From: a virus
Length of the DNA: 64,000 nucleotides
Reading direction: 5' to 3' (one strand)
IMG/VR virus record: IMGVR_UViG_3300033049_000020
Location: 32,001 to 96,000 of that record
Positions 25,695-60,908 of this stretch are shown here, in pieces. The notes beneath the pieces are model-generated. The model made no database searches. It worked only from the letters and a program-made list of their open reading frames with translations, and was not told where the DNA came from. The number at the start of each line of letters is the position of its first letter. Position 1 is the stretch's first letter. The position numbers and the translations under genes were made by a program.

Positions 25695-25726
25695 CAAAAT
25701 GCCTCCATGGTGTAACTGGATAACAT

Positions 25727-25802
25727 GGCTCTATGGTGTAATTGGATAACATTTTTCTCTTCTAAAGAAAAGTTTCAGGTTCGAACCCTGATAGGGCTAC
25801 CA
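25727..25802 (+). tRNA. tRNA-Arg(TCT), inside a split tRNA-Arg (halves 25701-25726 and 26380-26422)
   Basis: TTTCT-CT-TCT-AA-AGAAA; encoded CCA. Confidence 0.88.
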
Positions 25803-25852
25803 TGTAACGGATAATTTTTGAACTTTATCCATTGCACTCCATATTTATTACT

Positions 25853-26380
25853 ATGGAGAAAGAATTTCTAGTGGATTGTATTGACAAAGATATGTCAGTA
25901 TACCAAATATCTAAGGTGATTAAAAAAGCGCCTAACACTGTTACCTATTGGTTGAACAAGTTTGAATTAAAGACTAACCATAAATCGTTTAAAGATAAGG
26001 GTATTCTTGACTATGGTGGTGAAAGGGAATGTCCCAGATGCACTAAAACAAAGCCGTTAAGTGAATATTACGATAGAAGGGGTAAGAAGGGTTCATCAGT
26101 TTATTGTAAGCCCTGTACCACAGACCAATCTACAGAACGACAACGTAACTTGAAGCAGCTTGCTATCGATTATAAGGGTGGTGGTTGTGAAGTGTGTGGG
26201 TATGACAAATATAATGGTGCTTTAGATTTTCACCATATAGACCCTACTGAAAAGGATTTCAACATATCCAAAATAACTAGTTACACGTTTACTGATAAAG
26301 TTAAAGCTGAATTAGATAAATGTGCCCTAGTATGCTCCAATTGTCATAGGGAGATATATGGTGGGGTAATAGAATTGTAG
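25853..26380 (+). CDS. HNH endonuclease
   Basis: YKGGGCEVCGY..LDFHH..ELDKCALVCSNCHRE. Confidence 0.88.
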   Translation: MEKEFLVDCIDKDMSVYQISKVIKKAPNTVTYWLNKFELKTNHKSFKDKGILDYGGERECPRCTKTKPLSEYYDRRGKKGSSVYCKPCTTDQSTERQRNLKQLAIDYKGGGCEVCGYDKYNGALDFHHIDPTEKDFNISKITSYTFTDKVKAELDKCALVCSNCHREIYGGVIEL

Positions 26381-26829
26381 CCTTCTAAGCGTTTGTTCTG
26401 GGTTCGAGTCCTAGTGGGGGTACATTAATAATTAAAATTAGAAACAATGGCAAGAGAACTATTACCTGAAGTACGAGAGTTCACATATGACTATGTGAAA
26501 AGGTATCCATATACCACTTCAGCACCTATTGTTAGCCTATCTTATATTAAAGGTTGGAGCGATGGTTTGAAGCATATGGAATTGAGAGCATTGGTCATCA
26601 AAGAGATGGACAGAGCTAAGAAGAGAATTAAGGGTGAGAAAGATGACCTTATAACTAAACATGGTGGTAAGTGTAAGAAGTGTAAGAGAGATGTTAAGTT
26701 TGAGGTGATGCCCGATTATGATAGAATGGAAGATTATGGTAGGGCTATAATGTATGGTGACGGTCACGGACACAGCGATGTGATGTATTGTCAACGATGT
26801 TATACGCATAGAATAACAAAATAATAAAT

Positions 26830-26903
26830 TGGGTGTCCTAGTAGTAGGGTACATTGTAGTCTGCGCAGATGAAATTACGAAGGTGCAACACCTTCACACC
26901 CAG
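26830..26903 (+). ncRNA. tRNA-like RNA
   Basis: TGGGTGT/ACACCCA stem; GAAGG-TGCAACA-CCTTC T-like arm; no canonical anticodon loop. Confidence 0.5.
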
Positions 26904-26986
26904 CATATTGACTTATGGTGAAATTGGTTATCACTTGACTTTTATAGAACTAGCGTTATATTTATATCATATAAAGATACATTAAT

Positions 26987-27589
26987 ATGGCTAGTTTAAA
27001 AGAAAAGATAGTAAAATTACGTAAAGAAGGTAAAACGTATGACGATATAAAAGAAAATTTAGGATGTTCAAAATCGACAATATCTTATCATTGCCAAAGA
27101 CATAACGTTGGAGATAAGCGTAAGCGAACGTTTTTAACTGATGAGGATGTTATTAAATTACAAAATTATTACTTAATACACACCATTGAGGAATGCTGTA
27201 ACGAGTTCAACATTTCAAGGACTACAGTACATAGATATACTGACAATAAGATTTGGGGTCTGACGGAGGATGAGAAAAAAAGTAGAAATTATAATAGGGT
27301 TAAATTACATAGACAAAAGATAAAAGAGAAAGCAGTAGAATATAAAGGTGGGGAGTGTGAAAAATGTGGATACAATAAATGCTATTGGGCATTCGATTTT
27401 CACCATACTAACCCAGATGACAAAGAATTTACTATCTCCAAATACTCAACTCTGTCATGGGACAGAATTAAAGTGGAATTAGATAAGTGTGAGATGTTAT
27501 GTGCTAACTGTCATAGAGAATCACATTATCAAGAGTATATCGATGATTTATATTGTGCGGTAACCAGCGTGTCTGATACACATGACTAA
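26987..27589 (+). CDS. HTH plus HNH endonuclease
   Basis: N-terminal HTH; FDFHH..ELDKCEMLCANCHRE. Confidence 0.88.
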   Translation: MASLKEKIVKLRKEGKTYDDIKENLGCSKSTISYHCQRHNVGDKRKRTFLTDEDVIKLQNYYLIHTIEECCNEFNISRTTVHRYTDNKIWGLTEDEKKSRNYNRVKLHRQKIKEKAVEYKGGECEKCGYNKCYWAFDFHHTNPDDKEFTISKYSTLSWDRIKVELDKCEMLCANCHRESHYQEYIDDLYCAVTSVSDTHD

Positions 27590-27630
27590 GGTAACGGTTG
27601 AAAATAAGGGTTCGATTCCCTTTCGCACAA
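27554..27630 (+). tRNA. Rearranged tRNA-Ile(GAT)
   Basis: TGTGCGG/TCGCACA; CGTGT-CT-GAT-AC-ACATG lies before the D-loop-like GTAACGG. Confidence 0.7.
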
Positions 27631-27635
27631 CACAT

Positions 27636-27729
27636 AGGCATGTAGCAGCCCAACCTGATAAGTTGGAGAACTGTAATTGGTATCTTGCGATAACTTCAAA
27701 TGTGGGTTCGATTCCCATCTTGCCTACCA
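27636..27729 (+). tRNA. Rearranged tRNA-Ile(GAT)
   Basis: CCAAC-CT-GAT-AA-GTTGG before GTAATTGG; encoded CCA. Confidence 0.7.
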
Positions 27730-27861
27730 ATAAGTCACCAACGCCTCTCGTAGAAGCGCATCTTGGTATCTAAATGAGAATCAACGGATGTCGGCAGATG
27801 TTGATAGGATTTGTGACGGATGTTTATGGTCATCTAGGGCGTTCTTTTTAAAACCATACTT

Positions 27862-27941
27862 CCAGACATACCGAGCCAAGCTTATATCTTGGATATTCGT
27901 AGCGGTTGTTGAAAACGAGGGTTCGAATCCCTCTGTCTGGA
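27862..27941 (+). tRNA. Rearranged tRNA-Ile(TAT)
   Basis: CCAGACA/TGTCTGG; CCAAG-CT-TAT-AT-CTTGG before GTAGCGG. Confidence 0.7.
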
Positions 27942-28010
27942 CTTTTATAGTTGATTTATATACTTGTTGAATTGTATATGTTAAATTAATTTAGTATCTT
28001 TACATTATAT

Positions 28011-28085
28011 TGCGGATTGGAGCAGTAGTAGCTCGCAAGGCTCATAACCTTGAGGTCGGGGGTGCAAATCCCTCATCCGCTTCCA
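28011..28085 (+). tRNA. tRNA-Met(CAT), initiator-like
   Basis: 1:72 mismatch; CAAGG-CT-CAT-AA-CCTTG; encoded CCA. Confidence 0.8.
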
Positions 28086-28451
28086 GAGGTTTACTTTTTG
28101 TTCCTAGATTAAAGGTCGTAAGATATAATAATATGAAGTCAATTAATCAAATATTCTTAACTAATCCATCGTTGATGGATGAATCTGAAGTAAAAGATTT
28201 AATCGAATATTGTCAAGAACTGGAAGATGACGTAATTGAATTAAAACAGGAAGATGTAGCCATTATGGAGAATAAATTATCAGTATTGGTTTCAGATATT
28301 TATCATAGTATTAATGATGTATTAAAAAAAGACGCTGAATCTATACGATTTGGTGATACTGAACGAATAGATTTTAATAAAGCCATAATTAATTTAAAGG
28401 AGTACTTATTGGATTTTTCTAAAAGTAATGGGTTCTATTTTTAAACATAAA

Positions 28452-28539
28452 TGCAGGGTCGAGAAGTGGTATCTCATGAGTCTCATAAGCTCAAATAGCC
28501 TAACGGTTGTCGATGGTTCGATTCCATCTCCTGCTTCCA
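28452..28539 (+). tRNA. tRNA-Met(CAT), long variable arm
   Basis: TGAGT-CT-CAT-AA-GCTCA; encoded CCA. Confidence 0.8.
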
Positions 28540-28592
28540 GAGGTTTACTTTTTGTACTTTAGCCTTATATTTATATCTAAACGATATAGATT

Positions 28593-29216
28593 ATGGCAAG
28601 AAGAGAAAAGAAGTTTCACTACATCTACAAGACAACTAATTTACTTAGTGGTAGATATTACATCGGTATGCATTCAACAGATAACTTAGAAGATGGTTAT
28701 ATGGGTTCTGGAACAAGATTAAAGAGGTCACTTAATAAACATGGTAAAGAAAACCATAAGGTTGAATTCATAGAGTTCCTTGACACCAGAAAAGAGTTGA
28801 AGGATAGGGAAACTGAAATAGTTAATCTTAATGAGGTAGCTAAAGAAGACTGTATGAATCTGAAGGTAGGTGGTGAAGGCGGCTTCTCAAGTGAAGAACA
28901 GAGAAAGAATTTCCATTCTGCTGGTGGTCGCAAAGTATTCCAATTATTGAGTAGTAGACACGCCAATAGACTAAAAACAGACCCAAATTACAGAGAATAC
29001 TGGTTAGCGTCTTTAAAGCCATACGATTGGACTGGTCGAAAGCATTCAGAGGAAACAAAAGAGAAGATGTCTGAATCATCTAAAGGTATGGGAACTGGAA
29101 AGACTAACTCTCAATACGGTACTTGTTGGGTAACCAGAGATGGCTTAAATAAGAAGATAAAGAAAGATAATCTTAGCGAATTTATCGATGATGGGTGGAT
29201 AAGGGGTCGAAAGTGA
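28593..29216 (+). CDS. Seg-like GIY-YIG/NUMOD3 homing endonuclease
   Basis: Paralog of 24328..24975. Confidence 0.85.
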   Translation: MARREKKFHYIYKTTNLLSGRYYIGMHSTDNLEDGYMGSGTRLKRSLNKHGKENHKVEFIEFLDTRKELKDRETEIVNLNEVAKEDCMNLKVGGEGGFSSEEQRKNFHSAGGRKVFQLLSSRHANRLKTDPNYREYWLASLKPYDWTGRKHSEETKEKMSESSKGMGTGKTNSQYGTCWVTRDGLNKKIKKDNLSEFIDDGWIRGRK

Positions 29217-29506
29217 TTTGTATATGTCAAATATGTTTTGTATCTTTGCACTATGGAAGATGTTAAAATGTTTCTATTCGCAAGGTGGATAGCCACTTGT
29301 TATGCTGACACTCACTTAGATGGTGAGATGAGAAGTGAAGCTGATAAAGGGTTTGACGTATCAGATAATATGTCTGTTTTGAACGGGGAAGATGGTTATT
29401 GGTATAAGAAACAACTCAAACACTTCAATGAAGTTGTATACCCTAACTACCTTGAGAATGGAACAGTTAAGGATACTGAAGACTTCCTTAAAGTAAAATA
29501 ATATAT

Positions 29507-29598
29507 CGCGGAAATGAGGGCTGGTGGTGACGCTCAGATAGGCTCATAACCTATCAGGTTGAAACATACTGTGATTGGTTCGATTCCAACTTCCGCAA
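29507..29598 (+). tRNA. tRNA-Met(CAT), C1-A72 mismatch, long variable arm
   Basis: ATAGG-CT-CAT-AA-CCTAT. Confidence 0.75.
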
Positions 29599-29688
29599 CT
29601 TTTGATATTTCTCTAGAGAGGCTGATACCCGTAGAGTGTAAAGTGGTAATATAGCTTAGAAAGTGAAGTTCACAATATCAAAAAATAT

Positions 29689-29774
29689 TCTCAGTTCGCA
29701 TAGTGGCCGATTGCAGAAGACTGTTAATCTTCCGAGGGTTCCCCTCCACGCTAGTTCGAATCTAGCACTGAGAG
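29689..29774 (+). tRNA. tRNA-Asn(GTT), long variable arm
   Basis: GAAGA-CT-GTT-AA-TCTTC; G73. Confidence 0.85.
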
Positions 29775-29832
29775 CATCTATTTACATTTTCTTGTAAGTT
29801 GACTATATTTATTAACGTAAACAGTTAATAAT

Positions 29833-30282
29833 ATGAGCGATACACGACACAAGAATAAACTATCTGAAGAGTTAGTAACTAAGTTACAGAATTACTATGA
29901 TGAAGGTAATTCATGTCAGAAAACGGCAGATAAGTTTGGCGTTGGTAAGACAACTGTTAGGAGTTACGTTACTATCAGACCTAAGAAATTATTGACAGAT
30001 AAGGAGCGCAAGGCGTCTGCTGTTAAGGCGGTCACCAAACGAAGGCGTAAAATTAAAGAAATGGCCATCGAATATAAAGGTGGTAAATGCTGTAAATGTA
30101 GTTATAATAGGTGTAATGACGTTTTGGAGTTCCACCATTTAGACCCAAGTAAAAAAGATTTTAACATTTCTCAAAGAGGACATTCAAGGTCTTGGGTTAG
30201 AGTAAAAAAAGAATTAGATAAATGTATTATGGTGTGTAGTAATTGTCATAGAGAGATACATGCTGGACTTATAGAGGCTTAA
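29833..30282 (+). CDS. HTH plus HNH endonuclease, followed by a tRNA 3' half (30279-30319)
   Basis: LEFHH..ELDKCIMVCSNCHRE. Confidence 0.88.
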   Translation: MSDTRHKNKLSEELVTKLQNYYDEGNSCQKTADKFGVGKTTVRSYVTIRPKKLLTDKERKASAVKAVTKRRRKIKEMAIEYKGGKCCKCSYNRCNDVLEFHHLDPSKKDFNISQRGHSRSWVRVKKELDKCIMVCSNCHREIHAGLIEA

Positions 30283-30441
30283 CTCTCAGGTCGAGATTTC
30301 GAAATTCTCTGTAGGCGCAAAATGAATTGTCCAGATGGTATAAAGCAGTCTGGTTTAAGGAGTTCGAATCTCCACCTAGGGGTCTTACCCAAGATTCCCT
30401 AGGTATAACAAATCAAGGAAGAGCGTACATTCATTTAACAA

Positions 30442-30513
30442 CCCGATATGGTATAATGGCTAGAACGACACTCTCATAAGGTGTAGGACACAGTTCGATT
30501 CTGTGTATCGGGA
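30442..30513 (+). tRNA. tRNA(CAT), Met or Ile2
   Basis: ACACT-CT-CAT-AA-GGTGT. Confidence 0.8.
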
Positions 30514-30520
30514 CTAACAT

Positions 30521-30590
30521 TGCGGTGCTTAGTGGCAGAGGTCTTTGGCTCATATCCGAAGATAAGGCAGTTCGAACCTGCTCACCGCGA
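30521..30590 (+). tRNA. tRNA(CAT), reduced D-arm
   Basis: TTTGG-CT-CAT-AT-CCGAA. Confidence 0.7.
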
Positions 30591-30628
30591 CACTTGATTT
30601 TTTAGTAATAAATGTGTATCTTTGTAAA

Positions 30629-30967
30629 ATGGAAGAAATTAAAATGAGTGGAGACACTAACAACTTGATAACGGTAAAAGCTAAGATTCGTTTACATAGT
30701 CGAGGTGGTAGAAAAGCTGGCATTGTAAGTGGATATCGACCAGAACACGTATTTGAATATCTACACGGTGACACCATCAAAGCAAATTTCATGGGTCAAA
30801 TAGACTTTGAGTATGATGAAATAAAACGTGGAGAAGATAAAATTGTAACGGTTAAATTCATTAACACTGAAACCGTTAGAGAATACCTTACCGTTGGACG
30901 TACATGGTGGTTGTACGAAGGTGCCCGTCAAGTAGGTGAAGGTAAGATAATCGAAATAGTGGAATGA
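30629..30967 (+). CDS. Stand-alone EF-Tu domain III-like protein
   Basis: GGRKAGIVSGYRPEHVF...LYEGARQVGEGKI resembles EF-Tu GGRH..F..GYRPQFYF...REGGRTVGAG. Confidence 0.7.
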   Translation: MEEIKMSGDTNNLITVKAKIRLHSRGGRKAGIVSGYRPEHVFEYLHGDTIKANFMGQIDFEYDEIKRGEDKIVTVKFINTETVREYLTVGRTWWLYEGARQVGEGKIIEIVE

Positions 30968-31189
30968 ACGAACAAATAAAAAGATTTTTTAAAGGATATA
31001 CAGATTCAATGAATCTACCCAACCTAATAGTGGTACTTATTCTATTTAATGTTATGTTATTTTCGGATGAATTTACATGGTGGGCATTTATGGCTCTAAA
31101 TGGATTCTTCTTCGTAATAACGTGGTTGAACTACTTAACATGGCATTTCGAGAAAAAAAAACTAAAAAGAACCTTAAAAACAAGGAATA

Positions 31190-32380
31190 ATGAAAATCAA
31201 AATCAATGAGGTAAAACAAACCCCACCTAATATGGATTTCGGTCTATGTGTGTACGGGAAGCCTAATGAAGAAGTCACTGAATGGTGTGAACATTGGGGA
31301 TTGGCAACGGAGGAATCTGGAGCTTATACCAACATCATATTGAATGATGACTCTATCTTAGAACATATGTTTGAAGGTCATACGGTGTATAAGTATATGG
31401 ATGGGTTTAGTCCTAATCTTAATAAGCACTTACACGTTGGCCACCTATCCAACTTAGTTTTTGCTTCAGCATTCAGTAATATGGGAGTAACAGCAAAGAC
31501 TATCACTATTTTAGGTGATACGTTAGAGGGTGAAGTCGCTCATAAGGATGCGCTAGAAGAATTTGTAATTATATGTAACCAGTTCAATTATTACGTTGAT
31601 GATTATCATTATGCTTCTATGGTTGAATGCGACCATGAGTTGCTTGTAGCTGGTGAAGACGATTACGAAGGTACTTTAGTATTCGATTTGGGAGAAGAGA
31701 AGATTGTCGGGCTTAAATCGGACGGTAATACAACATACTTCTATCAAGATGTGGCTTTAGCCACACAATTAAATGACGATACATTATACTTGACTGGTGC
31801 AGAACAAGAAAACCACTTTACCCTATTGAAAACGATTGCACCTAAAGTAAACCACTTACCATTAGGTTTAGTGATGGTAGGTAATAATAAACTTAGTAGT
31901 CGAAACGGTAATGCAATGTTAGCTTCCGAATTGATTGCAGAGCTGATGGAAAAGTTAGATAATAACATCGAATTGGTGGTAAACATTATCAAAGGTCAGT
32001 TTTTGAAGTCAAAACCTAACTCAACTAAGAATATCTGGATTAAGGATATGTTAGAACCTAAAACATCCTCTGGATTGTATCTTAGCTACACAATGGCTCG
32101 TTTACTATCTGCTGGGTTGGCACTCCCAACGTATGAAGATATATTAGCTGATTCCTTCATCAGTAAGGAGATTCAATTCGCCTACATTAAGGCAAAGATT
32201 AATATGATGCCTAATACGCTATTAGAAGCGTTGGTAGAGCACTGTAAGATGATTAACACGTTATACATCGACCATCATATTAAGGACAATCCTGAGAATC
32301 AGAAGATGTTCCAGCCAATGTTGGAAGATTTATCTTACGGAATGTTGTGCTTAGGTATGTACGAAGTAACTAAAGTATAA
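31190..32380 (+). CDS. argS: Short arginyl-tRNA synthetase-like protein
   Basis: SPNLNKHLHVGHL, KSDG.TTY..QD, EQ..HF, KLSSRNG, YLSYTMARL. Confidence 0.8.
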   Translation: MKIKINEVKQTPPNMDFGLCVYGKPNEEVTEWCEHWGLATEESGAYTNIILNDDSILEHMFEGHTVYKYMDGFSPNLNKHLHVGHLSNLVFASAFSNMGVTAKTITILGDTLEGEVAHKDALEEFVIICNQFNYYVDDYHYASMVECDHELLVAGEDDYEGTLVFDLGEEKIVGLKSDGNTTYFYQDVALATQLNDDTLYLTGAEQENHFTLLKTIAPKVNHLPLGLVMVGNNKLSSRNGNAMLASELIAELMEKLDNNIELVVNIIKGQFLKSKPNSTKNIWIKDMLEPKTSSGLYLSYTMARLLSAGLALPTYEDILADSFISKEIQFAYIKAKINMMPNTLLEALVEHCKMINTLYIDHHIKDNPENQKMFQPMLEDLSYGMLCLGMYEVTKV

Positions 32381-32520
32381 TGGCGACTATTGGAGAAAAC
32401 TGGAATGAGCATGAGTCAGATGATAAGGTGCTAATGATTCTTGCCTTTGTAATTGGTTTTATAATGGCAATGGGATTTGGATTAGGTTTTTTAATTGCTT
32501 GGTTCATGTTTGCTTAAAAC

Positions 32521-32591
32521 GCCCCTATGGTGTAATGGATGCATAAGACTTTCCTAAAGTTTTGGTGGAGGTTCGAACCCTTCTAGGGGTA
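32521..32591 (+). tRNA. tRNA-Arg(CCT)
   Basis: AGACT-TT-CCT-AA-AGTTT. Confidence 0.82.
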
Positions 32592-32594
32592 CAC

Positions 32595-32667
32595 ACTCTC
32601 TTGGTGTAACTGGATAGCACTTGAAACTACGAATTTCAGAGTAAGAGTTCAAATCTCTTGGAGAGTA
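32595..32667 (+). tRNA. tRNA-Arg(ACG)
   Basis: TGAAA-CT-ACG-AA-TTTCA. Confidence 0.85.
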
Positions 32668-32673
32668 CTTTAT

Positions 32674-32752
32674 GGCGGTGTAGCCCGTTCAGGTTTCGAC
32701 CCTGTTAACGGTAATGGAGCTGCAAATGTGGGTTCGAATCCCACCTCCGTCT
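32674..32752 (+). tRNA. Rearranged tRNA-Arg(TCG)
   Basis: CCGTT-CAGG-TT-TCG-AC-CCTG-TT-AACGG then TAATGGA. Confidence 0.7.
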
Positions 32753-32785
32753 CAACGTTACAGTATATACTTTATTGTGTAATAT

Positions 32786-32865
32786 GGGGGTATAACCGAC
32801 TAAGTTTTCTAAACTTTTAATCGTAATCGGAGTTGAAAATGGGGGTTCGAGTCCCTCTACCCCTT
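32786..32865 (+). tRNA. Rearranged tRNA-Arg(TCT)
   Basis: AAGT-TT-TCT-AA-ACTT then GTAATCGGA. Confidence 0.7.
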
Positions 32866-34232
32866 CAACAATTTAATACCAAGGTTTACATTGATTTTCT
32901 CAATAATTATGCGTATCTTTGTACTATAAAACTTAGAACATGATTAAACTTAAAGAGAAAAATACGGACAAGCCCAAAGGTGGCAAAATACCTTATTACG
33001 AACTAGTATTCGACTACATGATTGGTGATGCTAATGGGGATACAACAGAGACGATTACAACATCAGTGGACAACCCACATGTAGAGAGATTTGTAAAATT
33101 AATAAACAGCTTAAAACCACTAAACGGTACTTGGGGTATCGTATTCTGTGAATATGAGGTAGAGGGATTTTCAGAGCAATTGGAATTGGAGGACTACCAA
33201 TTTCTGAATGCTGCATTGTTTGGTATTCACGGTAGAGAGGATTTGGATGATAATCCATATTTCGCAGAGGGTTTTGAAGATAACTATTTATGTGAATTTG
33301 AAGACGGAGTTCGTGGAGAGACTGAGTATTCATTCTTAGTATTTCAAGGAGTTGACCTATATTACTATGACGAATACGGTGTAAAGAACGAAACTGAAAT
33401 CACCTCATAATGGTAGATATCAAGGAAGAGTATAACAAATTCGAAGTCTGGCTATCAACACAATCTAAAGTTGATATAGCTGGTCTTTTGTTGCCGACTA
33501 GAAATTGGTCTAATATAAAGACCAATGCTCACGAAATTCTTGAAAGACGTTATCGTTGGTTTACAACAATACAAGAGGAACCTAATATCGAAATAGTAAT
33601 GGGTGATAAGGTAGTTACGTTGGAAGATATATCTAACCATATGGTTAAGTACATTAGTAAGTTTGAGGATGAGCCTCAATCGGTGACTTTGACTGAAGCT
33701 CAGTATAAAGTGCTGGAAGAGTCAGAACACAAACGAATGTGGTTACGGTCATTAAAGAACATCTAATGAAATGTGATAAGCATAGTCAAGGTATGATAGT
33801 CCTACACGCATTCTCCGATGGTGAGTGTGAAGTATGTGGACAAGAGGTAGTTACAGCGCATATCCCTTGTGATGAGGTATGTGAACGTTGTAGTGAAGAC
33901 AATAACCTTTGCCAAGTTTGTGGAGAGAAGATAAGTAAGGTTACAGTCAAGATTGGCCACGTAACCGACATTGACGAGGGAGTGGTAACCTGTTTACTAC
34001 GAGCCGAAAAAGAAATTCACGATGAAATCGAATTCAACATAGAAACATTAACTGAAGAACAACTACAATACGTAGAAATAGGTAATACTATGAGATTCAA
34101 TAAGGAGACTTATGAGATTGAATTCATGAAAGAAGATATGAGCTACATCCAACCTAATTATGAGTTGGAGTACTGTGAAACCTGTATACAAATGACCAAC
34201 CACTTATACGGTAAGTGTCAAAAACATAAAAA

Positions 34233-34547
34233 ATGAAAGAACATTACGAACGAAGTCATGAGCTTAATACTTATGATGTTGCACCCACTTCTGAGAAGCT
34301 ATGTAAATTATTCGAAGAGGTCGGAGAATTGGCTCAAGGGGTTAATAAAACCATCGGTAGAAAGATTACCAATGATACGCCAGAAGATATACGAGATAAT
34401 GTATTAGAAGAGGCGGCAGATACACTACAATGTATTTTCTCCCTATTGGGTGATTATGACGTTACTTACGAAGAATTATGTGACCGAATAGGAGTCAAAA
34501 ATGAGAGATGGTTAGAAGTAATTAATAAGCGTAAACAGAAGGTATAA
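34233..34547 (+). CDS. MazG-like nucleotide pyrophosphohydrolase
   Basis: LFEEVGELA...EEAAD. Confidence 0.8.
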   Translation: MKEHYERSHELNTYDVAPTSEKLCKLFEEVGELAQGVNKTIGRKITNDTPEDIRDNVLEEAADTLQCIFSLLGDYDVTYEELCDRIGVKNERWLEVINKRKQKV

Positions 34548-34783
34548 TCTTTACCATGTGAGGCGATATTTATATCTAAAGCCCACATGAAGGACTCAAT
34601 CAGAAATAAGCTTCGGGAAGCTATTAAGTTTAATGGTATAGTTTACGATGGTGTAGACACACCTAACGGTAAAGTCATGATAAGTGACGATGGTGTATTA
34701 GGTTATGATGGAATTCTAATTCCGTGGGATATAATCGAAAGCCAAATGATTAAACGTGGGGCTAGTAATTGTTCTCAGTGGAA

Positions 34784-48947: not shown

Positions 48948-49464
48948 GGCTAAGTGGTGGAATTGGTATACACGCCCTCTGAAGGGGAGAGTTCATTACG
49001 ATACCAGAACGGAGTTGCGAGAGCGTGAGAAGGAGTTAGTTAATGAGGGTTTGTTGAAAGAGGTTTTATGTATGAATTTGGCAATAGGTGGAGGCGGTGG
49101 GTTTACTAGTAAAGAGCATATGTTAAAAGCTACTAAAGCTGGTAATAAAGCGACCCTTAAGAAGAGGTGGATTGATAATAGAGAAGTGAATGTTGATAAT
49201 TTGGTTAAACTAAACAAGAGTATGTGGGCTGACCCACATATGAGAGAAAAAATGCTTAAATCTAATGGGTTTAAAGATAAGACACATAGTGAAGAAACGT
49301 TGGGGAAGATGAGAGAGGTTATGAAGGGTAAAGGTACTGGGAAGGATAACTCGCAATATGGTACTTGTTGGATAACCAGAGATGGTGAGAGTAAGAAGAT
49401 AAATAAAGAAGGAATTAACGAATACCTTGCAAAAGGTTGGGCTAAAGGAAGAAAAGGAACATAA
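48948..49464 (+). pseudogene. 5' part of a Leu-type tRNA fused to an N-terminally truncated Seg-like endonuclease
   Basis: GTGGTGGAATTGGTATACACG D-arm; ORF lacks the GIY-YIG motif but keeps CMNL..GG and NSQYGTCW. Confidence 0.7.
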
Positions 49465-50042: not shown

Positions 50043-50045
50043 AAT

Positions 50046-50568: not shown

Positions 50569-51213
50569 ATGAGGAAACCAAAAACGATACATTACATTTA
50601 CAAAACCACTTGTGATGTAACTGGTCGATACTATGTAGGGATGCATAGTACCAGTAACCTAGAAGATGGTTATATGGGTTCAGGTAAGAGGTTAAGACGT
50701 TCCATACGTAAGTACGGAGAAGATAATCATACCAAAGAGGTTGTGGCGTTCTACGATAGTAGGGAACTACTGGTTGAAGCTGAGAAGGAAGCCATCACAC
50801 CATATATGATTGGGGATAGGGATTGTATGAATCTGATGGGAGGTGGAACTGGCGGTTGGTGTAGTGAGGAGCACATGGTTAAATGTACTATAGCTGCTGG
50901 AAAAGCTAATAAAGTAAGGTTTGAAGTGGATATTGAGTATAAGAATTGGTGTTTAGATATTATGGCTAAAGGTAGGGCTAAATTAATTGATACGGGAGCG
51001 TATAAAAAGAAAGGTAAGGGGTTAGGTAGAGTTCATTCAGATGAAACTAAACAGAAAATGTCCAAATCGTCTAAAGGGAATGGTGTTGGAAAGTCTAACT
51101 CTCAATATGGTACTTGTTGGATAACCAGAGATGGTGAGAACAAAAAAATAAAGAAAGAAACTCTTAATGAATACTTAGAGATAGGTTGGGTTAGGGGAAG
51201 AGGAATAAAATGA
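50569..51213 (+). CDS. Seg-like GIY-YIG/NUMOD3 homing endonuclease
   Basis: YIYKTT..YYVGMH..YMGSG. Confidence 0.85.
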   Translation: MRKPKTIHYIYKTTCDVTGRYYVGMHSTSNLEDGYMGSGKRLRRSIRKYGEDNHTKEVVAFYDSRELLVEAEKEAITPYMIGDRDCMNLMGGGTGGWCSEEHMVKCTIAAGKANKVRFEVDIEYKNWCLDIMAKGRAKLIDTGAYKKKGKGLGRVHSDETKQKMSKSSKGNGVGKSNSQYGTCWITRDGENKKIKKETLNEYLEIGWVRGRGIK

Positions 51214-51603: not shown

Positions 51604-51662
51604 TGTGGGGTAGCTCAGTTGGCTAGAGCCTTGTTTCGGTGGTTCGAATCCGCCCCCCACAA
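51604..51662 (+). ncRNA. tRNA-like RNA without anticodon arm
   Basis: Intact acceptor, D-arm and T-arm joined by the 8-nt CTTGTTTC. Confidence 0.75.
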
Positions 51663-53162: not shown

Positions 53163-54039
53163 GAAATATTTCGTCTAACCAACCATTTTTATATGCGGAT
53201 TTATAAGCGGCTTGATTATCACCTCTAAAAGATGTCCTATTTTTATAACCCGTTGAAGCCTCAAAACATTTATCCTTAGTCCAATAGTATTTTTCGTGCC
53301 CATCCTTGGACATGTGCTTACAAATATCATCCAACCAACCCCTTCTTAATGCTATATTATAAACTGAAACGTGTTTTTTTCTAAATTCACTTTTAGTCTT
53401 ACAATTAATGCTTATTTCCCGACACCTGTCCTTATCCCAAAACCCTCTGGGTTTAATTTTATTTGGAATAATATCGTATACGTCTACCAACCACCCACCG
53501 TTTTTTGCCGAATTGTAAGCTCCATGGTATTTTTTTATGAAATAGTCTCTACTTTCACATAATTTAGCCACTTCCAGACATTTTTCTCTTGTCCACTTGG
53601 TAGTATTACCCCCTAAACCACCACGTTTTCGATTAATTATATTAACCTTAGACTCTTGGTATTCTTTAATTATTTTAGACTCTAATTTAGCCGCTTCTTC
53701 TTTATCTATATAGTCGGTTAATTGTTTGACAATGAATTTATGATTATTCTTAGCTAAATATCGGTATATTGAACTTCTTCGGTCTACTCTGTGTTTATAT
53801 TTCCTAACGTCTAAATTGTAAGTTAAACCAATATAGATAGCGCCACCCTCAAATTCATAAGCGTATACGCACCTATTATATCTGTTACCGTTATTAGACA
53901 TATGTTCACATAGTTCTTCGTGCCACCCCATTTTCAACGACTTATTATAAGCACCACTGAACCTAATAGTAAATTCGGTTTTAGTAGAACATAATAAGGC
54001 TAATTCCTTACATTTATTTTTGGTTAGTTTATATTTCAT
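53152..54039 (-). CDS. GIY-YIG endonuclease with W-T-K-E-K-C type repeats
   Basis: VYAY..YIGLT; repeated WT/D...C...A...GWL. Confidence 0.75.
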   Translation of the reverse strand: MKYKLTKNKCKELALLCSTKTEFTIRFSGAYNKSLKMGWHEELCEHMSNNGNRYNRCVYAYEFEGGAIYIGLTYNLDVRKYKHRVDRRSSIYRYLAKNNHKFIVKQLTDYIDKEEAAKLESKIIKEYQESKVNIINRKRGGLGGNTTKWTREKCLEVAKLCESRDYFIKKYHGAYNSAKNGGWLVDVYDIIPNKIKPRGFWDKDRCREISINCKTKSEFRKKHVSVYNIALRRGWLDDICKHMSKDGHEKYYWTKDKCFEASTGYKNRTSFRGDNQAAYKSAYKNGWLDEIFPKT

Positions 54040-54090
54040 TATTACGGTTTATTATAAATATGGGCTAGAACCAAGAAAACCCATTAATTT

Positions 54091-54396
54091 ATGTACTTGA
54101 TGTTCATTGGTCACTATTTCGAAGGTGGTGATTGGGACGATAGGGCTATTAAAGGTATTCGTAAGTTCAAAGGACGAATGGATAGATGGTTGAACGAAGC
54201 TGAGAAGCATGGTGAAGCTATTGACGTTAGAACGTTTATCGATACAGTTGATGGGTACGTTGAGGCATTCAAATTCAATAAGGTTATTAGTAGTTTTATG
54301 GAGTTCTACAATAAGAACAAGAATACCACAATAGATATACCTACGGCCAATATCATAAGGGAGATGATGAAATGTATATCTCCTAATTTCAAATAA
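54091..54396 (+). pseudogene. Displaced alternative C-terminus of the LeuRS-like gene
   Basis: YLMFIG..GGDW..GIR..VISSFM.FYN.NK..PNF aligns to 52857-53162. Confidence 0.85.
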
Positions 54397-54822
54397 GGTT
54401 GCACAAGTCAATTTAATTTAGTATCTTTGTATTATGAAAAATTTTATATATTTCGTTATGGCGGTGCAAGTAGTTCTAATAGGCTTAGGTGTCTATGATG
54501 TTTACCAAGGAGACGTAGGTTTCGGAGTAAGTATGATACTATTCAACGGATTCTTCTTAGCTAATAATGTGAAGACTATGAATCGCTGAGACTAATGGCA
54601 ACTGACGAAGAATTACTGAAAATCTATAGGCTCGGCTTCAATGATGAACTATGGGATAAGCCACGACAAGCTTTTAATGATGACTTCCAAGACCGAGCCT
54701 ATGGGTTAGGTATGATGGATGCAATAGCAGGTGATGACGTATCATCAGTCGATGAGAAGTCCAACGAGGAAACCTTGAAGCAGATTAAAGGATTATAGCT
54801 CGGTTAACCTATATTTATAGGT

Positions 54823-55605
54823 ATGTTACCAAGCATAAGAAAAAGTTTACGAGAAGGATTAATGTTCGAGCACGATGTTGTGGACTCAAAGAGAGTACGC
54901 AATCAAATAGACCACATACGGTATGTCTTTACAGTTAATGGTGTTTTATATAACGTCAATTTCTGGCATGATGACAAGGTGCATAAATTTGGTGAGTACG
55001 AACTAGAGTTTTCAATTGATAATCAAAACAATACTGGTCAAAGAGTTGGTAAAGACCTTAGACACCTTAACACAGTTTTATACACGGTTACCAACATTAT
55101 CGAAAGAGAAGTTCAAGAAAAAGGTATCATACGAGTGAAGATTGAGGGTGCTGGTGACGCTAAGGATAGTGCTGGAATATTCAATCCAACTATTAGAGCT
55201 AAACTATACCTTAGATTCCTAAAGAACAAATATCCAACGGACGCTATAACTGCCGCAGGTCGTTATATTAATATGGATATGACCAAGATATATCCTAACA
55301 TGAAACGAGACGCTGAGAGTAGCTCAGATAAGCTTATCAAGGCTCTACTGGTTGTGTCTGATGCCGACCCAGATGAGACAGGTCTTAGAAGAGGCTTAAG
55401 TGGTAAGGATGAGTCACAATTCGTCATCAATACTGACTTTATTCAAAGCTCTAAATTTGGAACCATCTACGTAGAGATACGAGTGTGGGGTGCTATCAAC
55501 GAATATGAGCTTGCTTGGGATATAAACAGTACTGGAAACGAAGGTAGTAAAGAGTTCGAGAGCGTTGACCAAATGGTTGAGTTCATATTAGCCAATTTTA
55601 AATAA
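54823..55605 (+). CDS. Probable late/virion protein
   Basis: ATATTTATA promoter motif; IRKSLRE N-terminus. Confidence 0.45.
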   Translation: MLPSIRKSLREGLMFEHDVVDSKRVRNQIDHIRYVFTVNGVLYNVNFWHDDKVHKFGEYELEFSIDNQNNTGQRVGKDLRHLNTVLYTVTNIIEREVQEKGIIRVKIEGAGDAKDSAGIFNPTIRAKLYLRFLKNKYPTDAITAAGRYINMDMTKIYPNMKRDAESSSDKLIKALLVVSDADPDETGLRRGLSGKDESQFVINTDFIQSSKFGTIYVEIRVWGAINEYELAWDINSTGNEGSKEFESVDQMVEFILANFK

Positions 55606-55661
55606 ATTTGTATATATCAATTTAATTTAGTATCTTTGTATTATTAAATCAAAACATATAA

Positions 55662-56879
55662 ATGGGTAGTTTTTCATATACTTGCAAATTAACTGGAGTC
55701 CCTATCACATCAGGTGAGCCAGCAGTTCTAATCCCGATAAAACCTTCGGGGAAATTATATGACAATTCAGAAAAGAGTCTAAGTGAGTACGGAAAAACGT
55801 GCTTGGTATCAAATGATGGTGCTAGACTTAAATTTAATCCATGCTGGTTCCCAATCAGATTAAACTATAACGACTATGGTAGTGGTGAAGATATTGTAAA
55901 GGACGACAACACTGAAGTACTGGAAAAGTACTATAATCTACCCATAGAAACATTGGTTGAAATCATCACTTCACATAGAAAGGATGATGGATATGATGAT
56001 GCATTAGATGAAATCAAAGACCAAGAAAATCCTGGTGAGTACGGAGCGCCTAATTACCAAGATAGATATAAAGAACTTTTGAATATTTCTGGCATGTGGG
56101 TTCATGGAACCGTATATGATGAATTAGTCAAAGAGCAAGACCACTCGACCACTTCATGGGGATTTCCATTAGACTTGGGTATGCCAGAGATTCTAATTTC
56201 TTTCGGGTTTACCGAGATTGAAGAAGACCCGAAAGAAGCTAGATATAAACGACAGTTTGAGAAAGACGGATTGGTTGTTAATTCTGATGGTACTTGGTTA
56301 CATGTTAAAGACACTAATGGGATATATGATTTAGTTAACCTACAAGACTATTGTAAGTCGGAAGGGGTTACAATCGACATCAGTAATCATGAAAATAAGA
56401 GTTCTTGGGAGTTACTAAATGACTTCTTCATACCAACTATAGATAACTTAGACGGTGACCGTGGCTTGTTACTTAGTATGAGCACAAAGTCTATGGGTAC
56501 TATACTTAGAGAGCTAATGGCTGACGGAATGGATGAGGAAGATGCTGCGGATTTAGCTTTCGAATTAAAACATGGTATGATGTCCGAATCTAAAAAGAAA
56601 ATCGCTTACCGATTACTTAATTTTGGTTGTAATGAACATTCAGTTAAAAATCCGATAACTAGAGCATACTTTGAAGCTGTCAAAGAAGGTAAACTGAGAG
56701 ATGTAGTTAGAGACTTCTGGAGATTCGACAGTTATATGTACCCAACTGGTAGATTTTACGATATTATCGGTACGTCTCCACAATGTGGAGACGCTATATC
56801 GGTTAAAAGAGTATTGGAAGCCGCATTGGTAGCAGTAGCCCCACAAGTAGCTCAAGAAGAGGAATACGCAAACGAATGA
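55662..56879 (+). CDS. Hypothetical protein
   Basis: 405 aa ORF after a TATCTTTG promoter. Confidence 0.5.
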   Translation: MGSFSYTCKLTGVPITSGEPAVLIPIKPSGKLYDNSEKSLSEYGKTCLVSNDGARLKFNPCWFPIRLNYNDYGSGEDIVKDDNTEVLEKYYNLPIETLVEIITSHRKDDGYDDALDEIKDQENPGEYGAPNYQDRYKELLNISGMWVHGTVYDELVKEQDHSTTSWGFPLDLGMPEILISFGFTEIEEDPKEARYKRQFEKDGLVVNSDGTWLHVKDTNGIYDLVNLQDYCKSEGVTIDISNHENKSSWELLNDFFIPTIDNLDGDRGLLLSMSTKSMGTILRELMADGMDEEDAADLAFELKHGMMSESKKKIAYRLLNFGCNEHSVKNPITRAYFEAVKEGKLRDVVRDFWRFDSYMYPTGRFYDIIGTSPQCGDAISVKRVLEAALVAVAPQVAQEEEYANE

Positions 56880-57586
56880 AAAAAAATTTAAAAACATCAA
56901 AAGAGTGGGAAGAGTTAGTTCCCAAAAGATTTAAATTGCAAATCCTAGACCCAGATGGTTGGGATAGAAGTAACTATGAATTCTCCTTTCATGAGGAGTT
57001 GATTACGTGGGAGCAATTCCGTAACAGGATGTCTTATTCTACGTGCATTGTACATGCCGATATTCATAAGTGGGATGGTTTAATATTTCGGGAGGAATTA
57101 GAAGAAAACGGATGGAAAGAAGAAGAAGGATTGTGGCGTCACGAAACGTTCGGTGCAGAAGGATTGATGTACGATGAGGCGGTACCAAACCTACCATCAC
57201 AAAATGAAATACCAGAAGGCTGGATGGATTGGAATAATCAGTCAATGGACTTCTATGTAAGTGTACTTGGGGGGTGGCAATTCCAAAGTAGTGGAGAAGC
57301 TAAAGCTATATGCAAATTGATAGCGTTCTATGAAGCCAACAAGGATAGAGACCCAAACCGAACAGAAACGGAACTATACTCAATCAAAGACGAGTGGGTG
57401 CGACATAACGCTAAAACAGATAGAGTAATTGCAGAAGGAACTAATCGTATAAATGGAATGTTCACAATGGAAGAAGCTCAAGCGTATGTAGCTAAACAAG
57501 ATGAGAGGGTAGAACTAGAGAAGTTCAACCAATATAGGTTACACTCTTTTATAATAGAAGAAATCACCAGTAAACCATTAGTATAA
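56876..57586 (+). CDS. Hypothetical protein
   Basis: 236 aa; ILDPDGWDR motif. Confidence 0.5.
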   Translation: MKKNLKTSKEWEELVPKRFKLQILDPDGWDRSNYEFSFHEELITWEQFRNRMSYSTCIVHADIHKWDGLIFREELEENGWKEEEGLWRHETFGAEGLMYDEAVPNLPSQNEIPEGWMDWNNQSMDFYVSVLGGWQFQSSGEAKAICKLIAFYEANKDRDPNRTETELYSIKDEWVRHNAKTDRVIAEGTNRINGMFTMEEAQAYVAKQDERVELEKFNQYRLHSFIIEEITSKPLV

Positions 57587-58923
57587 GATGGACTTAGAAA
57601 AACAATGGAACGACTTACGTAACGATGGTAAATTATTATCATATATTGAGGATAAGTTTGACCACTATAAAGAACTTGGCTATCAAGTAAGTGCCTTCAT
57701 AAGCTCTTCTTATATTAGTATTGGAGATGAGAGTATCACAGGCAACAAATCCATGTACCACGAATTAAAGAGTATTCATGATATGGATGCGTACTTAAAA
57801 GATAAAGAGGAAAGTCAACCATGAACAAACTACACGCAAGAAAAATAAGTGAAACCATACCTGATGTTGCAATATTCAACATGCTGGAACGTGCTAAGAC
57901 TGAGGTAAAGGATTGGTCGGTTCCATGTAAGGTGAATGGTCAGATAAGTAGGGGACATTTCTGGAACATGTTCGCATGTCAACTTAAAGCTCCAGATTTT
58001 GAAATCGTGAGTAGTATGGTTAAGTATAGTCTTATATATGAGTTCGGTGACCTACTTCCAAAGGAGTACCAACCACCCAAAAAGAAAAAAGGTAAGGAGT
58101 TACCATTAAACTATATTCATTCAGAACCAAAATTTAACTAATGGAAACAGATGGAGATTACGATACTGGATGGGATGAATCAGAAGATACTGAACTAGAA
58201 GCATGGGATGTAGAAACGGATTCTGAAGACCCAGAATTTGAAACTGGTAAGGAACCAAATAAGGATATTGATTATTTATACATTCTTGGTGAGGCTTGGC
58301 CAGTATATCCGCAAGGTATCACCACTATTTTCGAAGATAAATATGAAAGACCTCATATTGTATCTAGAGAGCAATTTGATGCTATTCACACCAAATACTC
58401 TTGTATAGATATTGATGATGAGGTAACGGCTATCGATATAGTCAAAATTGGAAACACATCTTACGAATTTACCATTAAAGAACTTAATATCAGATGTCGC
58501 TCTAACTATCCTTGGGCATTCTTTGAGAACACTCCAGAGAATAGACCGAAAATCAATGAGTACTATAGACAGAAAAAGAATAGAGAAGAGTTGGCTGAAA
58601 TAGTTGAAGTATTAAGAAACGATATTGCACAACTATGAACGAAGAAGTTACCCACTTCAATTATTGTATAGCTAGACCATGGAAAAATAATCCAAATAGT
58701 CTATCCGCATACGCTTTAGGTACTCAATTATTTTATGGTACTATGGAGGAGGCTGAAGACACAAGAGCGAATATAAGTAAACGAGCTGGAAAAGAATATG
58801 AAATCTATAAGCTTGATAATCAACCACTTATGAGAAAACCTTAAAATATTTTACAAAAGACTTGTATTATCCAAATACTTTTCGTATCTTTGTACTATAT
58901 TTAATAGAAAGACATAAACAGTT

Positions 58924-58992
58924 ATGAGAAACTTTAACGACATATTCGAATTCAACTTTGCCGCATTTGCGGAGGAGGATGATTGCATCTAG
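58924..58992 (+). CDS. Leader peptide of tRNA array 3: MRNFNDIFEFNFAAFAEEDDCI
   Basis: Promoter, Phe/Ala/Glu/Asp-rich uORF, terminator. Confidence 0.8.
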   Translation: MRNFNDIFEFNFAAFAEEDDCI

Positions 58993-59034
58993 ATGCCAAA
59001 GGATATGTTGTAAACGAAACTCAATACGATATAC

Positions 59035-59068
59035 AAAACCTTTGGCTAACCAGTCAAAGGTTTTTTTT
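59035..59068 (+). terminator. Attenuator terminator 3
   Basis: AAAACCTTTGGCT-AACC-AGTCAAAGGTTTT-TTTT; competing GCCAAAGG at 58995-59002. Confidence 0.88.
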
Positions 59069-59185
59069 ATGCCTTAAAATTAAAATATGCGACCTAAGCT
59101 AACTTGGTAGAAGCACTGGCTTGAAACCCTTCTTTCTAATAGAAGTAAAACAATTAGAGTGAGTTCTTTGACATCTTGGTTAAAT

Positions 59186-59259
59186 GGGGTAGTGGTAGAG
59201 TTGGTCAATTGCGTTCGGTTGAAGCCCGAAAGATGTAGGTTCGATTCCTACCTGCCTCA
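59186..59259 (+). tRNA. tRNA-Phe(GAA), inside a split tRNA-Phe (halves 59089-59129 and 59741-59768)
   Basis: TTCGG-TT-GAA-GC-CCGAA. Confidence 0.85.
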
Positions 59260-59323
59260 CAAAAGTTTGAACTATTTTTACACTTTTCAGTCTTTGTTGA
59301 TATTTATATTAAACGATGATATT

Positions 59324-59740
59324 ATGGAAAAGAAAATTTGTACACGATGTGAAGATAGTAAAGAGTTAGACGACTTCAGTTGGAAGAGTAAAGTAAAAGG
59401 GACTAAACAGTCTAAGTGTAAAGTATGTATGCGTGAGTTGGATAAGATAAAATACGCTAATGATACTGAAAGGAGAAGAAGAATAAGGGAAACCGCAAAA
59501 CTGGCTTATATTAGGAATCGTGATTTTGTGCGGAGAGTAAAAAGGTTGGGTAGCTGCTCTGAATGTGTAGAAGATAGGTGGTATTGTTTAGACTTCCATC
59601 ATTGTGGAGATAAAGAGTTTGAACTTAGTGATATGGTACATTCTGGGTATTCCATTATTAAGATTAAAAAGGAAATTAGAAAATGTAAGCTTCTATGTGC
59701 TAATTGTCATAGAGAAGAACATTACCAGAATGGTTATTGA
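59324..59740 (+). CDS. HNH endonuclease
   Basis: LDFHH..EIRKCKLLCANCHRE. Confidence 0.88.
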   Translation: MEKKICTRCEDSKELDDFSWKSKVKGTKQSKCKVCMRELDKIKYANDTERRRRIRETAKLAYIRNRDFVRRVKRLGSCSECVEDRWYCLDFHHCGDKEFELSDMVHSGYSIIKIKKEIRKCKLLCANCHREEHYQNGY

Positions 59741-59776
59741 CGCGGTTCGAAACTGGTAGGTCGCACCAAAACATAC

Positions 59777-59849
59777 GTGACAGTAGCTCAGTTGGTAGAG
59801 CATCGCCCTGAAGAGGCGAGTGTCGGGGGTTCGAGACCCTCTTGTCACA
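59777..59849 (+). tRNA. tRNA-Phe(GAA)
   Basis: TCGCC-CT-GAA-GA-GGCGA. Confidence 0.9.
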
Positions 59850-60013
59850 CAGCTAATATTTTAGCCAGAAATAGCTAAAATAGAGGTAAATAGTTAATAT
59901 ATTAGCTATTGTTCTTTGACATCTTGGTTAAATGGTGCTGTATGCAAGCGGTTCAACGCAGCAATTTGACATTTTCTAAATGTTTAGTATATTTATATTA
60001 AAATAGATATATT

Positions 60014-60640
60014 ATGGTAAGAAAATGGAGAGAAAAGGAAATTGAGTTTTTAAAGCTTAATTATGGTGCTAATGGTTGTAAATACGTTTGTGAAAAATTA
60101 AATAGAGGTAGAGGTAGTGTACAGAAAAAGGCTAAAGTCTTCAACCTGAAAGTAGATAGGAAAAAAATTTATTATTCAGTGGAAGTTGTTAGTAGAATAG
60201 TCAGTGAAAGTATGTCGATGAAGGATGTGGTGTTGGCATTAGGTAAAAGTGTTAGTGGTAAACAATATAAGGTAATAAAAAAGTTTATAGATGATAATAG
60301 TATTGACGATACACATTTTAATCCTTACCACTTAAATAAAACTAATTTAAAAATTGGTAGAGTCACATATCCAATTGACCATTGGCTTAAGAACGGTTCT
60401 AATATTAGTAGTTCTAACTTAAAGGTTAAACTATATAAAGAAGGTCTGAAGAAGAGGGATTGCGAAATGTGTGGGCAAGGTGAAGAATGGTTAGGTAAAA
60501 AAATGAGTTTAATACTTGACCATATTAATGGGGTGAATGATGATAATAGGTTGGATAACTTAAGGATTGTTTGCCCTAATTGTAACGCTACCTTGGAAAC
60601 CCATTGTAGAGGTAGTAAGGGATTAAAACAACGTGCGTAA
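60014..60640 (+). CDS. HNH endonuclease
   Basis: CEMCG..LDHINGVNDDNRLDNLRIVCPNC. Confidence 0.9.
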   Translation: MVRKWREKEIEFLKLNYGANGCKYVCEKLNRGRGSVQKKAKVFNLKVDRKKIYYSVEVVSRIVSESMSMKDVVLALGKSVSGKQYKVIKKFIDDNSIDDTHFNPYHLNKTNLKIGRVTYPIDHWLKNGSNISSSNLKVKLYKEGLKKRDCEMCGQGEEWLGKKMSLILDHINGVNDDNRLDNLRIVCPNCNATLETHCRGSKGLKQRA

Positions 60641-60714
60641 TGCAATTGGGTGCGCAACTGGGCTTTCACCCCAGCTACATTGTTAGAGAGTGGGTTCGAT
60701 TCCCACACGCATGA
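60632..60714 (+). tRNA. tRNA-Glu(TTC), long variable arm, inside a split tRNA (halves 59934-59964 and 60720-60767)
   Basis: CTGGG-CT-TTC-AC-CCCAG. Confidence 0.8.
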
Positions 60715-60908
60715 CTATACAACCTTGTGTCTATATGACTTCGAGGGTTCGAATCCCTTCGGCACTACATTATTGGTGTTCCAAATTGACCTAAAATTGA
60801 GTGTTTTGGAACACCAATAACCAGCCAAAACTACCTGTTTTAGGGTACATTTGGCTGGTTATAGAACGCGGAATGTACTTAAATGTGGTAGATTCCGAGA
60901 AATATCAC

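Follow-up and report, generated by a model that had tools for sequence, protein, structure and literature searches.

That large phages carry dozens of redundant and diverged transfer RNAs (tRNAs) is usually explained by codon usage or by the replacement of tRNAs that host defences have cut. Prophages and genomic islands that integrate at tRNA genes insert in the gene and restore its function. Among the closest described systems is SegB of the phages T4 and T6, a free-standing homing endonuclease encoded in the tRNA cluster, which cuts inside the tRNA genes of a co-infecting phage and drives the inheritance of itself and of the flanking tRNAs (PMC2330249, PMC13096335). Its neighbourhood shows no isotype preference (PMC13096335). 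In addition, illegitimate repair that is one-sided and involves microhomology and degraded ends has been described for T4 (PMC2988022). Here, genes for HNH nucleases are described that are situated, together with tRNA genes, inside broken tRNA genes of an uncultured large phage. The analysed window is the stretch of 64,000 nucleotides at positions 32001-96000 of a 152-kb linear virus record (IMGVR_UViG_3300033049_000020), and all coordinates are window positions. The record is about 43% complete, has a G+C content of 36.5%, and contains about 55 tRNA genes as well as a transfer-messenger RNA (tmRNA). A motif scan revealed that nearly all HNH or GIY-YIG genes adjoin a tRNA.

A sequence-only reading had described four tRNA genes that are split by an HNH cassette. 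For Arg, Phe and Glu this was verified, while the Ile arrangement is weak, its 3′ remnant having a length of only 10 nt (Table 1). The chance that a random 7-mer pairs with the respective acceptor strand at a fixed register is 2e-5 to 6e-4. The inserts of 0.6–0.8 kb hold only an HNH gene and one or more tRNAs; an integrase or direct repeats of the att type were not found in them. Across the split cases 3–10 bases were lost at the tRNA/insert junctions, and the junction positions within the tRNA vary from the D stem to the T stem. The 5′ half of the Arg gene ends past the D stem and its 3′ half begins two bases before the anticodon loop, at the stop codon of the nuclease gene HNH1, and therefore 3–4 bases were lost. 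The D arm of the carried tRNA-Arg(TCT) is nearly identical to that of the 5′ half, but the anticodon stem is different. In the Phe case the 3′ half begins inside the T stem, about 9–10 nt were lost, and the D-arm type of the 5′ half is intact at one homolog locus (L294; L numbers denote homolog loci). The two closest relatives of HNH3 also lie beside Phe, and at one of them, L273, the 3′ half is likewise joined inside the T stem. At the Glu junction 6 nt were lost, and filling in six bases yielded a gene that ARAGORN called as tRNA-Glu(TTC); the 5′ half is directly followed by a promoter. The closest homologs of HNH4 at L189 (72%), L300 and L191-L193 adjoin Glu, which supports the isotype that had been deduced from context for this split gene.

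The nucleases HNH1, 2, 3 and 5 belong to PHROG 2255 and HNH4 to PHROG 10822, and none of them is of the GIY-YIG type. The Cys pairs that bind zinc and the C-x-N-C motif are conserved (alignments A1, A2), and so is the catalytic motif, which is His-His in HNH1-3 and HNH5 and Asp-His in HNH4; the intact HNH motifs are invariant across 56 homologs. All genes lie outside any intron or intein. Their designation as homing-type HNH nucleases was supported. The structure model of HNH1 is confident (predicted local distance difference test score, pLDDT, 91).

The isotypes of the neighbouring tRNAs were counted at 146 non-redundant homolog loci. Arg(TCT) is found beside 17 of the 20 closest HNH1 relatives that have an adjacent tRNA, compared to an expectation of 2.1, and Asn(GTT) beside 25 of the 35 proteins closest to HNH5 (5.9 expected). 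On a FastTree tree of the 95-column nuclease core, which is rough and has many open forks, the Arg and Asn labels need 2 changes each, compared to about 24 in shuffles. The lineage of the nuclease predicts the isotype of the neighbouring tRNA, and the same-isotype linkage seen in the window holds across homologs.

Pairs of empty and full alleles exist in cultured phages with related nucleases. In the Bacillus phages Janet and Bastille the resident tRNA-Asn keeps its 5′ end but continues into an anticodon arm and a T arm that are new; an HNH gene is next, followed by the 3′ half of the Asn gene, of which OTooleKemple52 and Anthony have an unbroken copy. In Anthony and Vinny tRNA-Asp is split by an HNH gene with a loss of 5 bases and without a spare tRNA, and in Evoli the Asp gene is whole. 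The Pseudomonas phage PaoP5 has a Lys gene that is split without a spare, with PaP1 as its comparison phage, and PAK_P2 has a rewired Arg(TCT) and an HNH gene where PaP1 has a canonical Arg(TCT). A gene in P. putida phages matches the rewired one at 100% identity, and the match stops short of the nuclease. The Klebsiella phage KP13-7 has Asn and HNH genes, and K64-1 has neither. Janet and Bastille, and also PAK_P2, have an incoming tRNA whose anticodon arm is unlike that of the resident tRNA.

The best reading of these data, which is considered probable, is isotype-specific intronless homing with imprecise repair of the break. The nucleases would be free-standing HNH homing endonucleases, and each lineage would target the gene for a single tRNA isotype. 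When two phages infect the same cell, the enzyme would cut the other phage's cognate tRNA gene in the region from the anticodon to the T arm, and the place of the nuclease gene in the broken tRNA gene suggests a cut site near the gene. The broken ends would be trimmed and repaired from the donor. Two-sided homology between the tRNA arrays would lead to a clean allele swap, as in PAK_P2, and one-sided homology to a restored chimeric tRNA plus a 3′ orphan, as in Janet and Bastille. If homology is missing, illegitimate repair would drop the nuclease and the neighbouring donor tRNA into the break and would leave both halves with the loss of a few bases, as in the window. The carried tRNA would be resistant and the cassette would act as a drive; at its own site the nuclease would survive only beside a poorly cut or intron-bearing allele. 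Because the nuclease occupies what was once its own target, the tRNA next to it would normally share the isotype. As the partner tRNA is often exchanged, repeated rounds would leave duplicated, diverged tRNAs.

The nested form is not confined to the window. Among the closest HNH1 loci with DNA, seven in number with the window included, six have retained at least one half. Both halves flank the cassette at four of the seven (the window, L005, L295, L297), and single halves are kept at L006 (3′) and L007 (5′). Compensated differences between the T stems of these halves indicate that the insertions were separate and hit different alleles, each of them functional. The same pattern was also found for Glu (L189) and Phe (L273). 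The similarity among the enclosed Arg tRNAs is 51–70%, which equals the background of Arg(TCT) genes (median 60%), while the HNH1 gene of the window reaches 72% with that of L005; thus the partner tRNA is exchanged and the cassette re-assembled rather than inherited as a fixed unit, with the isotype being kept. Two further arrangements were seen at L006, namely a 5′ half with Asn and an HNH5 homolog (2706-2815) and a 5′ half with an HNH gene and Arg(CCT) (3822-4472).

Several results weigh against isotype-specific homing. An empty allele was not found for any of this phage's own sites with pattern and neighbour-protein searches, so that the comparison with empty-site relatives, which had been proposed earlier, yielded pairs for the nuclease family but none for this phage. 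A degenerate Arg pattern gave no match, a 3′-half pattern retrieved only Lys and Arg(CCT) genes, and a Phe pattern found one intact Phe gene of the same D-arm type, which is another allele. The neighbour proteins led to two distant homologs, to relatives at 38–81% with different tRNA alleles, or to nothing. Few loci of the wider families have orphan halves: a 3′ half was found at 11 of 106 loci compared to 4 of 156 controls (p 0.012), and the frequency of 5′ halves did not differ significantly from the controls. The automatic half-finder used is crude and missed the 3′ half of L005 because of a spurious tRNA call. The rarity of the halves makes the nested form look recent, decaying to a plain tRNA-nuclease pair. 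HNH2 is not linked to Ile, neither at the homolog loci nor in the core tree, where it falls in an Asn-dominated clade. A Foldseek search with the HNH1 model gave no match at E 0.001 and only weak HNH folds (Cap5, McrA, Hpy99I, PacI). The anticodon arms of carried and of split genes were not told apart by any simple rule in the sequence. At L010 and L015, which have 48%-identical homologs, the intact adjoining Arg(TCT) genes share the anticodon-loop context of the split gene, and therefore resistance is not evident from sequence. A rule with G39 in the target and A39 in the carried gene, which fits the window and PAK_P2, was rejected, as it fails in L005, L006, L010 and L015. The replacement tRNA claimed in the sequence-only reading is usually of the same isotype, but such a replacement is not a requirement. 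Other Arg(TCT), Phe(GAA) and Glu(TTC) genes occur in this genome, so that the carried spare is not needed here; L297 encloses Arg(ACG) in a split Arg-type gene; and some relatives, such as Anthony and PaoP5, carry no spare at all.

The dispensable spares, together with the background similarity of the carried Arg tRNAs and the donor's array leader in the Phe insert, are what would be expected if the nucleases were mobile and tRNA-targeted and the enclosed tRNA were passively co-converted donor flank, with no selection for resistance or replacement. This is judged unlikely, as the same isotype tracks the nuclease across unrelated phages, hosts and orientations, and as the incoming tRNAs of Janet, Bastille and PAK_P2 are changed in the anticodon arm. 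A function directed against the host, with the nuclease cutting a host tRNA gene or RNA, the diverged phage tRNA as antidote and the split phage genes as collateral damage, would agree with the strict isotype linkage, with the often atypical carried tRNAs (long variable arms, rewired folds), and with the arginyl-tRNA synthetase (ArgRS)-like protein and the CCA-adding enzyme of the phage. However, a selfish element would account for the patchy presence among near-identical phages and for inserts in phage tRNA genes, the HTH, zinc-finger and HNH domains point to DNA, and an RNase signature was not seen, which makes this function very unlikely.

The acceptor strands and T arms of the split genes are still perfectly paired, as would be the case if the inserts were introns and the halves were spliced or ligated into working tRNAs. 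Neither a group I nor a group II intron was detected in the window with Rfam, and the genome gave no group I match; the same model found group I introns at the homolog loci L094 and L012. The junction ends paired no better than shuffles in a duplex-energy test, which is not a search specific for bulge-helix-bulge motifs; the paired ends of archaeal-type split tRNAs or of tRNAs with bulge-helix-bulge introns were thus not seen. None of 438 Phe and none of 21 Ile junction pairs yielded a tRNA call, the filled-in Phe gene was not called by ARAGORN, and the listed Glu joins gave other isotypes, with no call for the direct join. Only the Arg junction is more favourable to splicing: a weak anticodon stem is possible by borrowing three bases from the insert, i.e., from the start of the enclosed tRNA, and ARAGORN accepts the direct join. 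The exons do not rejoin into a complete tRNA, with 3–10 nt missing, and homologs often retain one half only. With no ribozyme, no pairing above shuffles and bases lost at the junctions, insertion is upheld and splicing is extremely improbable. Somewhat less remote, but still highly improbable, are degraded mobile group I introns that lost the ribozyme and recruited a tRNA afterwards. Homologs do adjoin Arg(TCT) genes with anticodon group I introns (RF00028, 74 bits at L094 and 68 bits at L012), but the nuclease lies outside the intron at these loci, an intron remnant is missing from this genome, and the junctions span the D stem to the T stem instead of one intron site.

Table 1. Features of the HNH cassettes and of the orphan tRNA halves in the window.
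Feature	Position	Strand	Match or remark
Orphan 3′ half of tRNA-Ser(GGA), fused to GIY-YIG promoter remnant	25330..25372	+	
5′ half of split tRNA-Arg(TCT): acceptor strand, D arm	25701..25726	+	
Carried intact tRNA-Arg(TCT)	25727..25802	+	Rfam tRNA 59 bits
HNH1, 175 amino acids (aa), HTH + zinc finger + HNH; Arg(TCT)-linked clade	25853..26380	+	PHROG 2255 E 9e-38
3′ half of split tRNA-Arg(TCT): anticodon loop, perfect T arm, acceptor strand	26380..26424	+	
Orphan 5′ half, acceptor + D arm, Ile-like, isotype uncertain	26909..26934	+	
HNH2, 200 aa, HTH + HNH	26987..27589	+	PHROG 2255 E 2e-29
Rewired (non-cloverleaf) tRNA-Ile(GAT), overlaps HNH2 end	27554..27630	+	Rfam tRNA 31 bits
Second rewired tRNA-Ile(GAT); syntenic ortholog in nuclease-free relatives	27636..27726	+	
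Possible 3′ acceptor remnant, 10 nt, weak	27731..27740	+	
Carried tRNA-Asn(GTT) of fifth cassette, long variable arm	29689..29775	+	
HNH5, 149 aa; Asn(GTT)-linked clade	29833..30282	+	PHROG 2255 E 1e-27
Orphan 3′ half of tRNA-Asn, belongs to fifth cassette	30279..30319	+	
5′ half of split tRNA-Phe(GAA), through GAA anticodon loop	59089..59129	+	
Foreign 56-nt leader in Phe insert	59130..59185	+	array-heading motif TTCTTTGACAT at 59164
Carried tRNA-Phe(GAA)	59186..59260	+	73% identical to Phe beside homolog L273
HNH3, 138 aa; closest homologs adjoin tRNA-Phe	59324..59740	+	PHROG 2255 E 2e-28
3′ half of split tRNA-Phe: part of T stem, acceptor strand, CCA	59743..59768	+	
5′ half of split tRNA, most likely Glu; ends at tRNA position 29	59934..59964	+	
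Sigma-70-like promoter, cassette left edge	59966..59993	+	11/12, TTGACA at 59966
HNH4, 208 aa, second HNH family	60014..60640	+	Pfam HNH; PHROG 10822 E 3e-34
Carried tRNA-Glu(TTC), long variable arm	60632..60715	+	acceptor strand same as in L189
3′ half of split Glu-like tRNA, resumes near position 36	60720..60768	+	

In the Ile case the 5′ half is real, and its D arm matches that of an Ile(GAT) gene in L130 at 19 of 19 positions. The CCA of the 3′ remnant is out of register by one base, and relatives without the nuclease have a similar TCA-CCA spacer at its place, so that the case as a whole is weak and may just as well be a true split as not. Two orphan 3′ halves that had been noticed before, at 25330 and 30279, are both present. 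The latter turned out to belong to a fifth HNH cassette, for Asn, and its T arm is identical to that of a tRNA-Asn of phage KVP40. The former is not an HNH split, but, to judge from L006, where the undeleted order is visible, a deletion scar; the deletion seems to have begun in the GIY-YIG promoter. Another deletion scar, a 5′ part of a Leu-like tRNA fused to an internal part of a GIY-YIG gene, is found at 48948-49464.

Five Ile and Arg tRNAs of the window are non-cloverleaf (27554-27630, 27636-27726, 27862-27941, 32674-32752, 32786-32865), with the layout of a 5′ D strand, then the anticodon arm, and the GG loop after it; related genes occur at L005, L006, L184, L185 and L295. A tRNA-like gene at 51604-51662 has acceptor, D and T arms and is devoid of an anticodon arm (Rfam 40 bits). 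Two tRNAs with a CTA anticodon are encoded at 15335-15483, though TAG ends 17 of 117 long open reading frames. The CCA-adding enzyme, the ArgRS-like protein and the tmRNA are encoded at 19235-20173, 31190-32380 and 12751-13125, respectively. Unannotated stretches that resemble structured RNAs are situated at 27743-27850 and 29600-29688, and the first is conserved in position in L006, L184 and L185. The motif TTCTTTGACAT, which resembles a boxA antitermination site, heads tRNA arrays here (24998, 59164, 59912) and in relatives. Leader peptides at 58924-58992 and 24052-24096 precede attenuator-like hairpins and contain many of the amino acids that belong to the tRNA array downstream of them; the one before the Phe/Glu/Ala/Asp array has 5 Phe, 3 Ala, 3 Glu and 3 Asp in 22 aa.

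Further nuclease genes were observed. An HNH-like gene (61154-61933) lies between two Ala(TGC) genes (61012-61983), the second of which overlaps its end. Outside the window, HNH genes are present between Pro(TGG) genes (L274:951-1298) and after two Tyr genes and a tRNA-like stretch (L274:2558-3057). HNH1 homologs beside an Arg(TCT) gene with an anticodon group I intron were seen at L094:3587-3787 and L012:567-759, and also at L092, L095 and L011; the intron is Rfam-confirmed for L094 and L012 only, and the nuclease is on the opposite strand, which resembles collaborative homing. Four SegB-like GIY-YIG/NUMOD3 genes (24328-24975, 28593-29216, 50569-51213, 62518-63159) are each situated directly 3′ of a diverged tRNA (His, CAT, Val and Asp), and none of them splits a tRNA.

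It is tempting to speculate, although this is rather doubtful at present, that isotype-specific HNH nucleases are cut-and-replace drives on RNA genes and that their sweeps explain to a large extent why large phages have so many tRNAs and why these are redundant and oddly structured. Such sweeps would favour uncuttable alleles, including rewired and intron-bearing tRNAs captured from other phage lineages. If this were true, repeated sweeps, and not codon demand or host anticodon nucleases alone, would shape the tRNA sets of large phages, and an isotype-specific selfish nuclease would be a third, testable force on phage tRNA content. The nucleases are compact (140–210 aa), with targets predictable from the lineage, and near-isogenic cultured pairs (Bastille/Janet versus OTooleKemple52, Anthony versus Evoli, PAK_P2/PaoP5 versus PaP1) make the idea testable without culturing this phage.

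A publication on isotype-specific HNH clades or nested tRNA cassettes was not found in a search that was largely outside subscription papers. The proposed mode of action resembles that of SegB. However, SegB is a GIY-YIG enzyme with NUMOD3 that recognises a T-loop motif common to many tRNAs, whereas the cassette nucleases are of the HNH type; the GIY-YIG/NUMOD3 genes of the window are the SegB-like ones. SegB lies between tRNA genes and does not favour any isotype among its neighbours, while the cassette HNH genes are isotype-linked by clade and sit inside the broken target together with a same-isotype tRNA. SegF, SegG and MobE of T-even phages share with the cassettes a nuclease outside introns and, on the reading proposed for the cassettes, also one-sided illegitimate repair with end loss and a self allele that is presumably protected by sequence difference or an intron (PMC2988022). 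These known free-standing enzymes cut hundreds to thousands of bases away and convert the homologous allele (PMC2988022). SegF and SegG cut far from their gene; the cassette gene may sit at or near its cut site, as its place in the broken tRNA gene suggests, and the halves of the old gene remain. F-TflI/II/IV of T5 are likewise free-standing phage HNH enzymes with a patchy distribution among relatives, and the accessible part of their description does not mention a split tRNA with an enclosed tRNA (Akulenko 2004, cited in PMC10644984). The mobile group I introns of bacterial tRNA anticodon loops also tie a nuclease to the anticodon region (PMC3984707), but the cassettes have no ribozyme, and a second tRNA, not splicing, keeps the function. 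The form of Janet and Bastille, a restored tRNA with a displaced 3′ half, resembles tRNA-integrating elements, from which the cassettes differ by the lack of an integrase and of att-like direct repeats, by variable junctions and by the changed anticodon arm. Taken together, the cassettes probably work like intronless homing and are neither members of the SegB family nor introns nor integrative elements.

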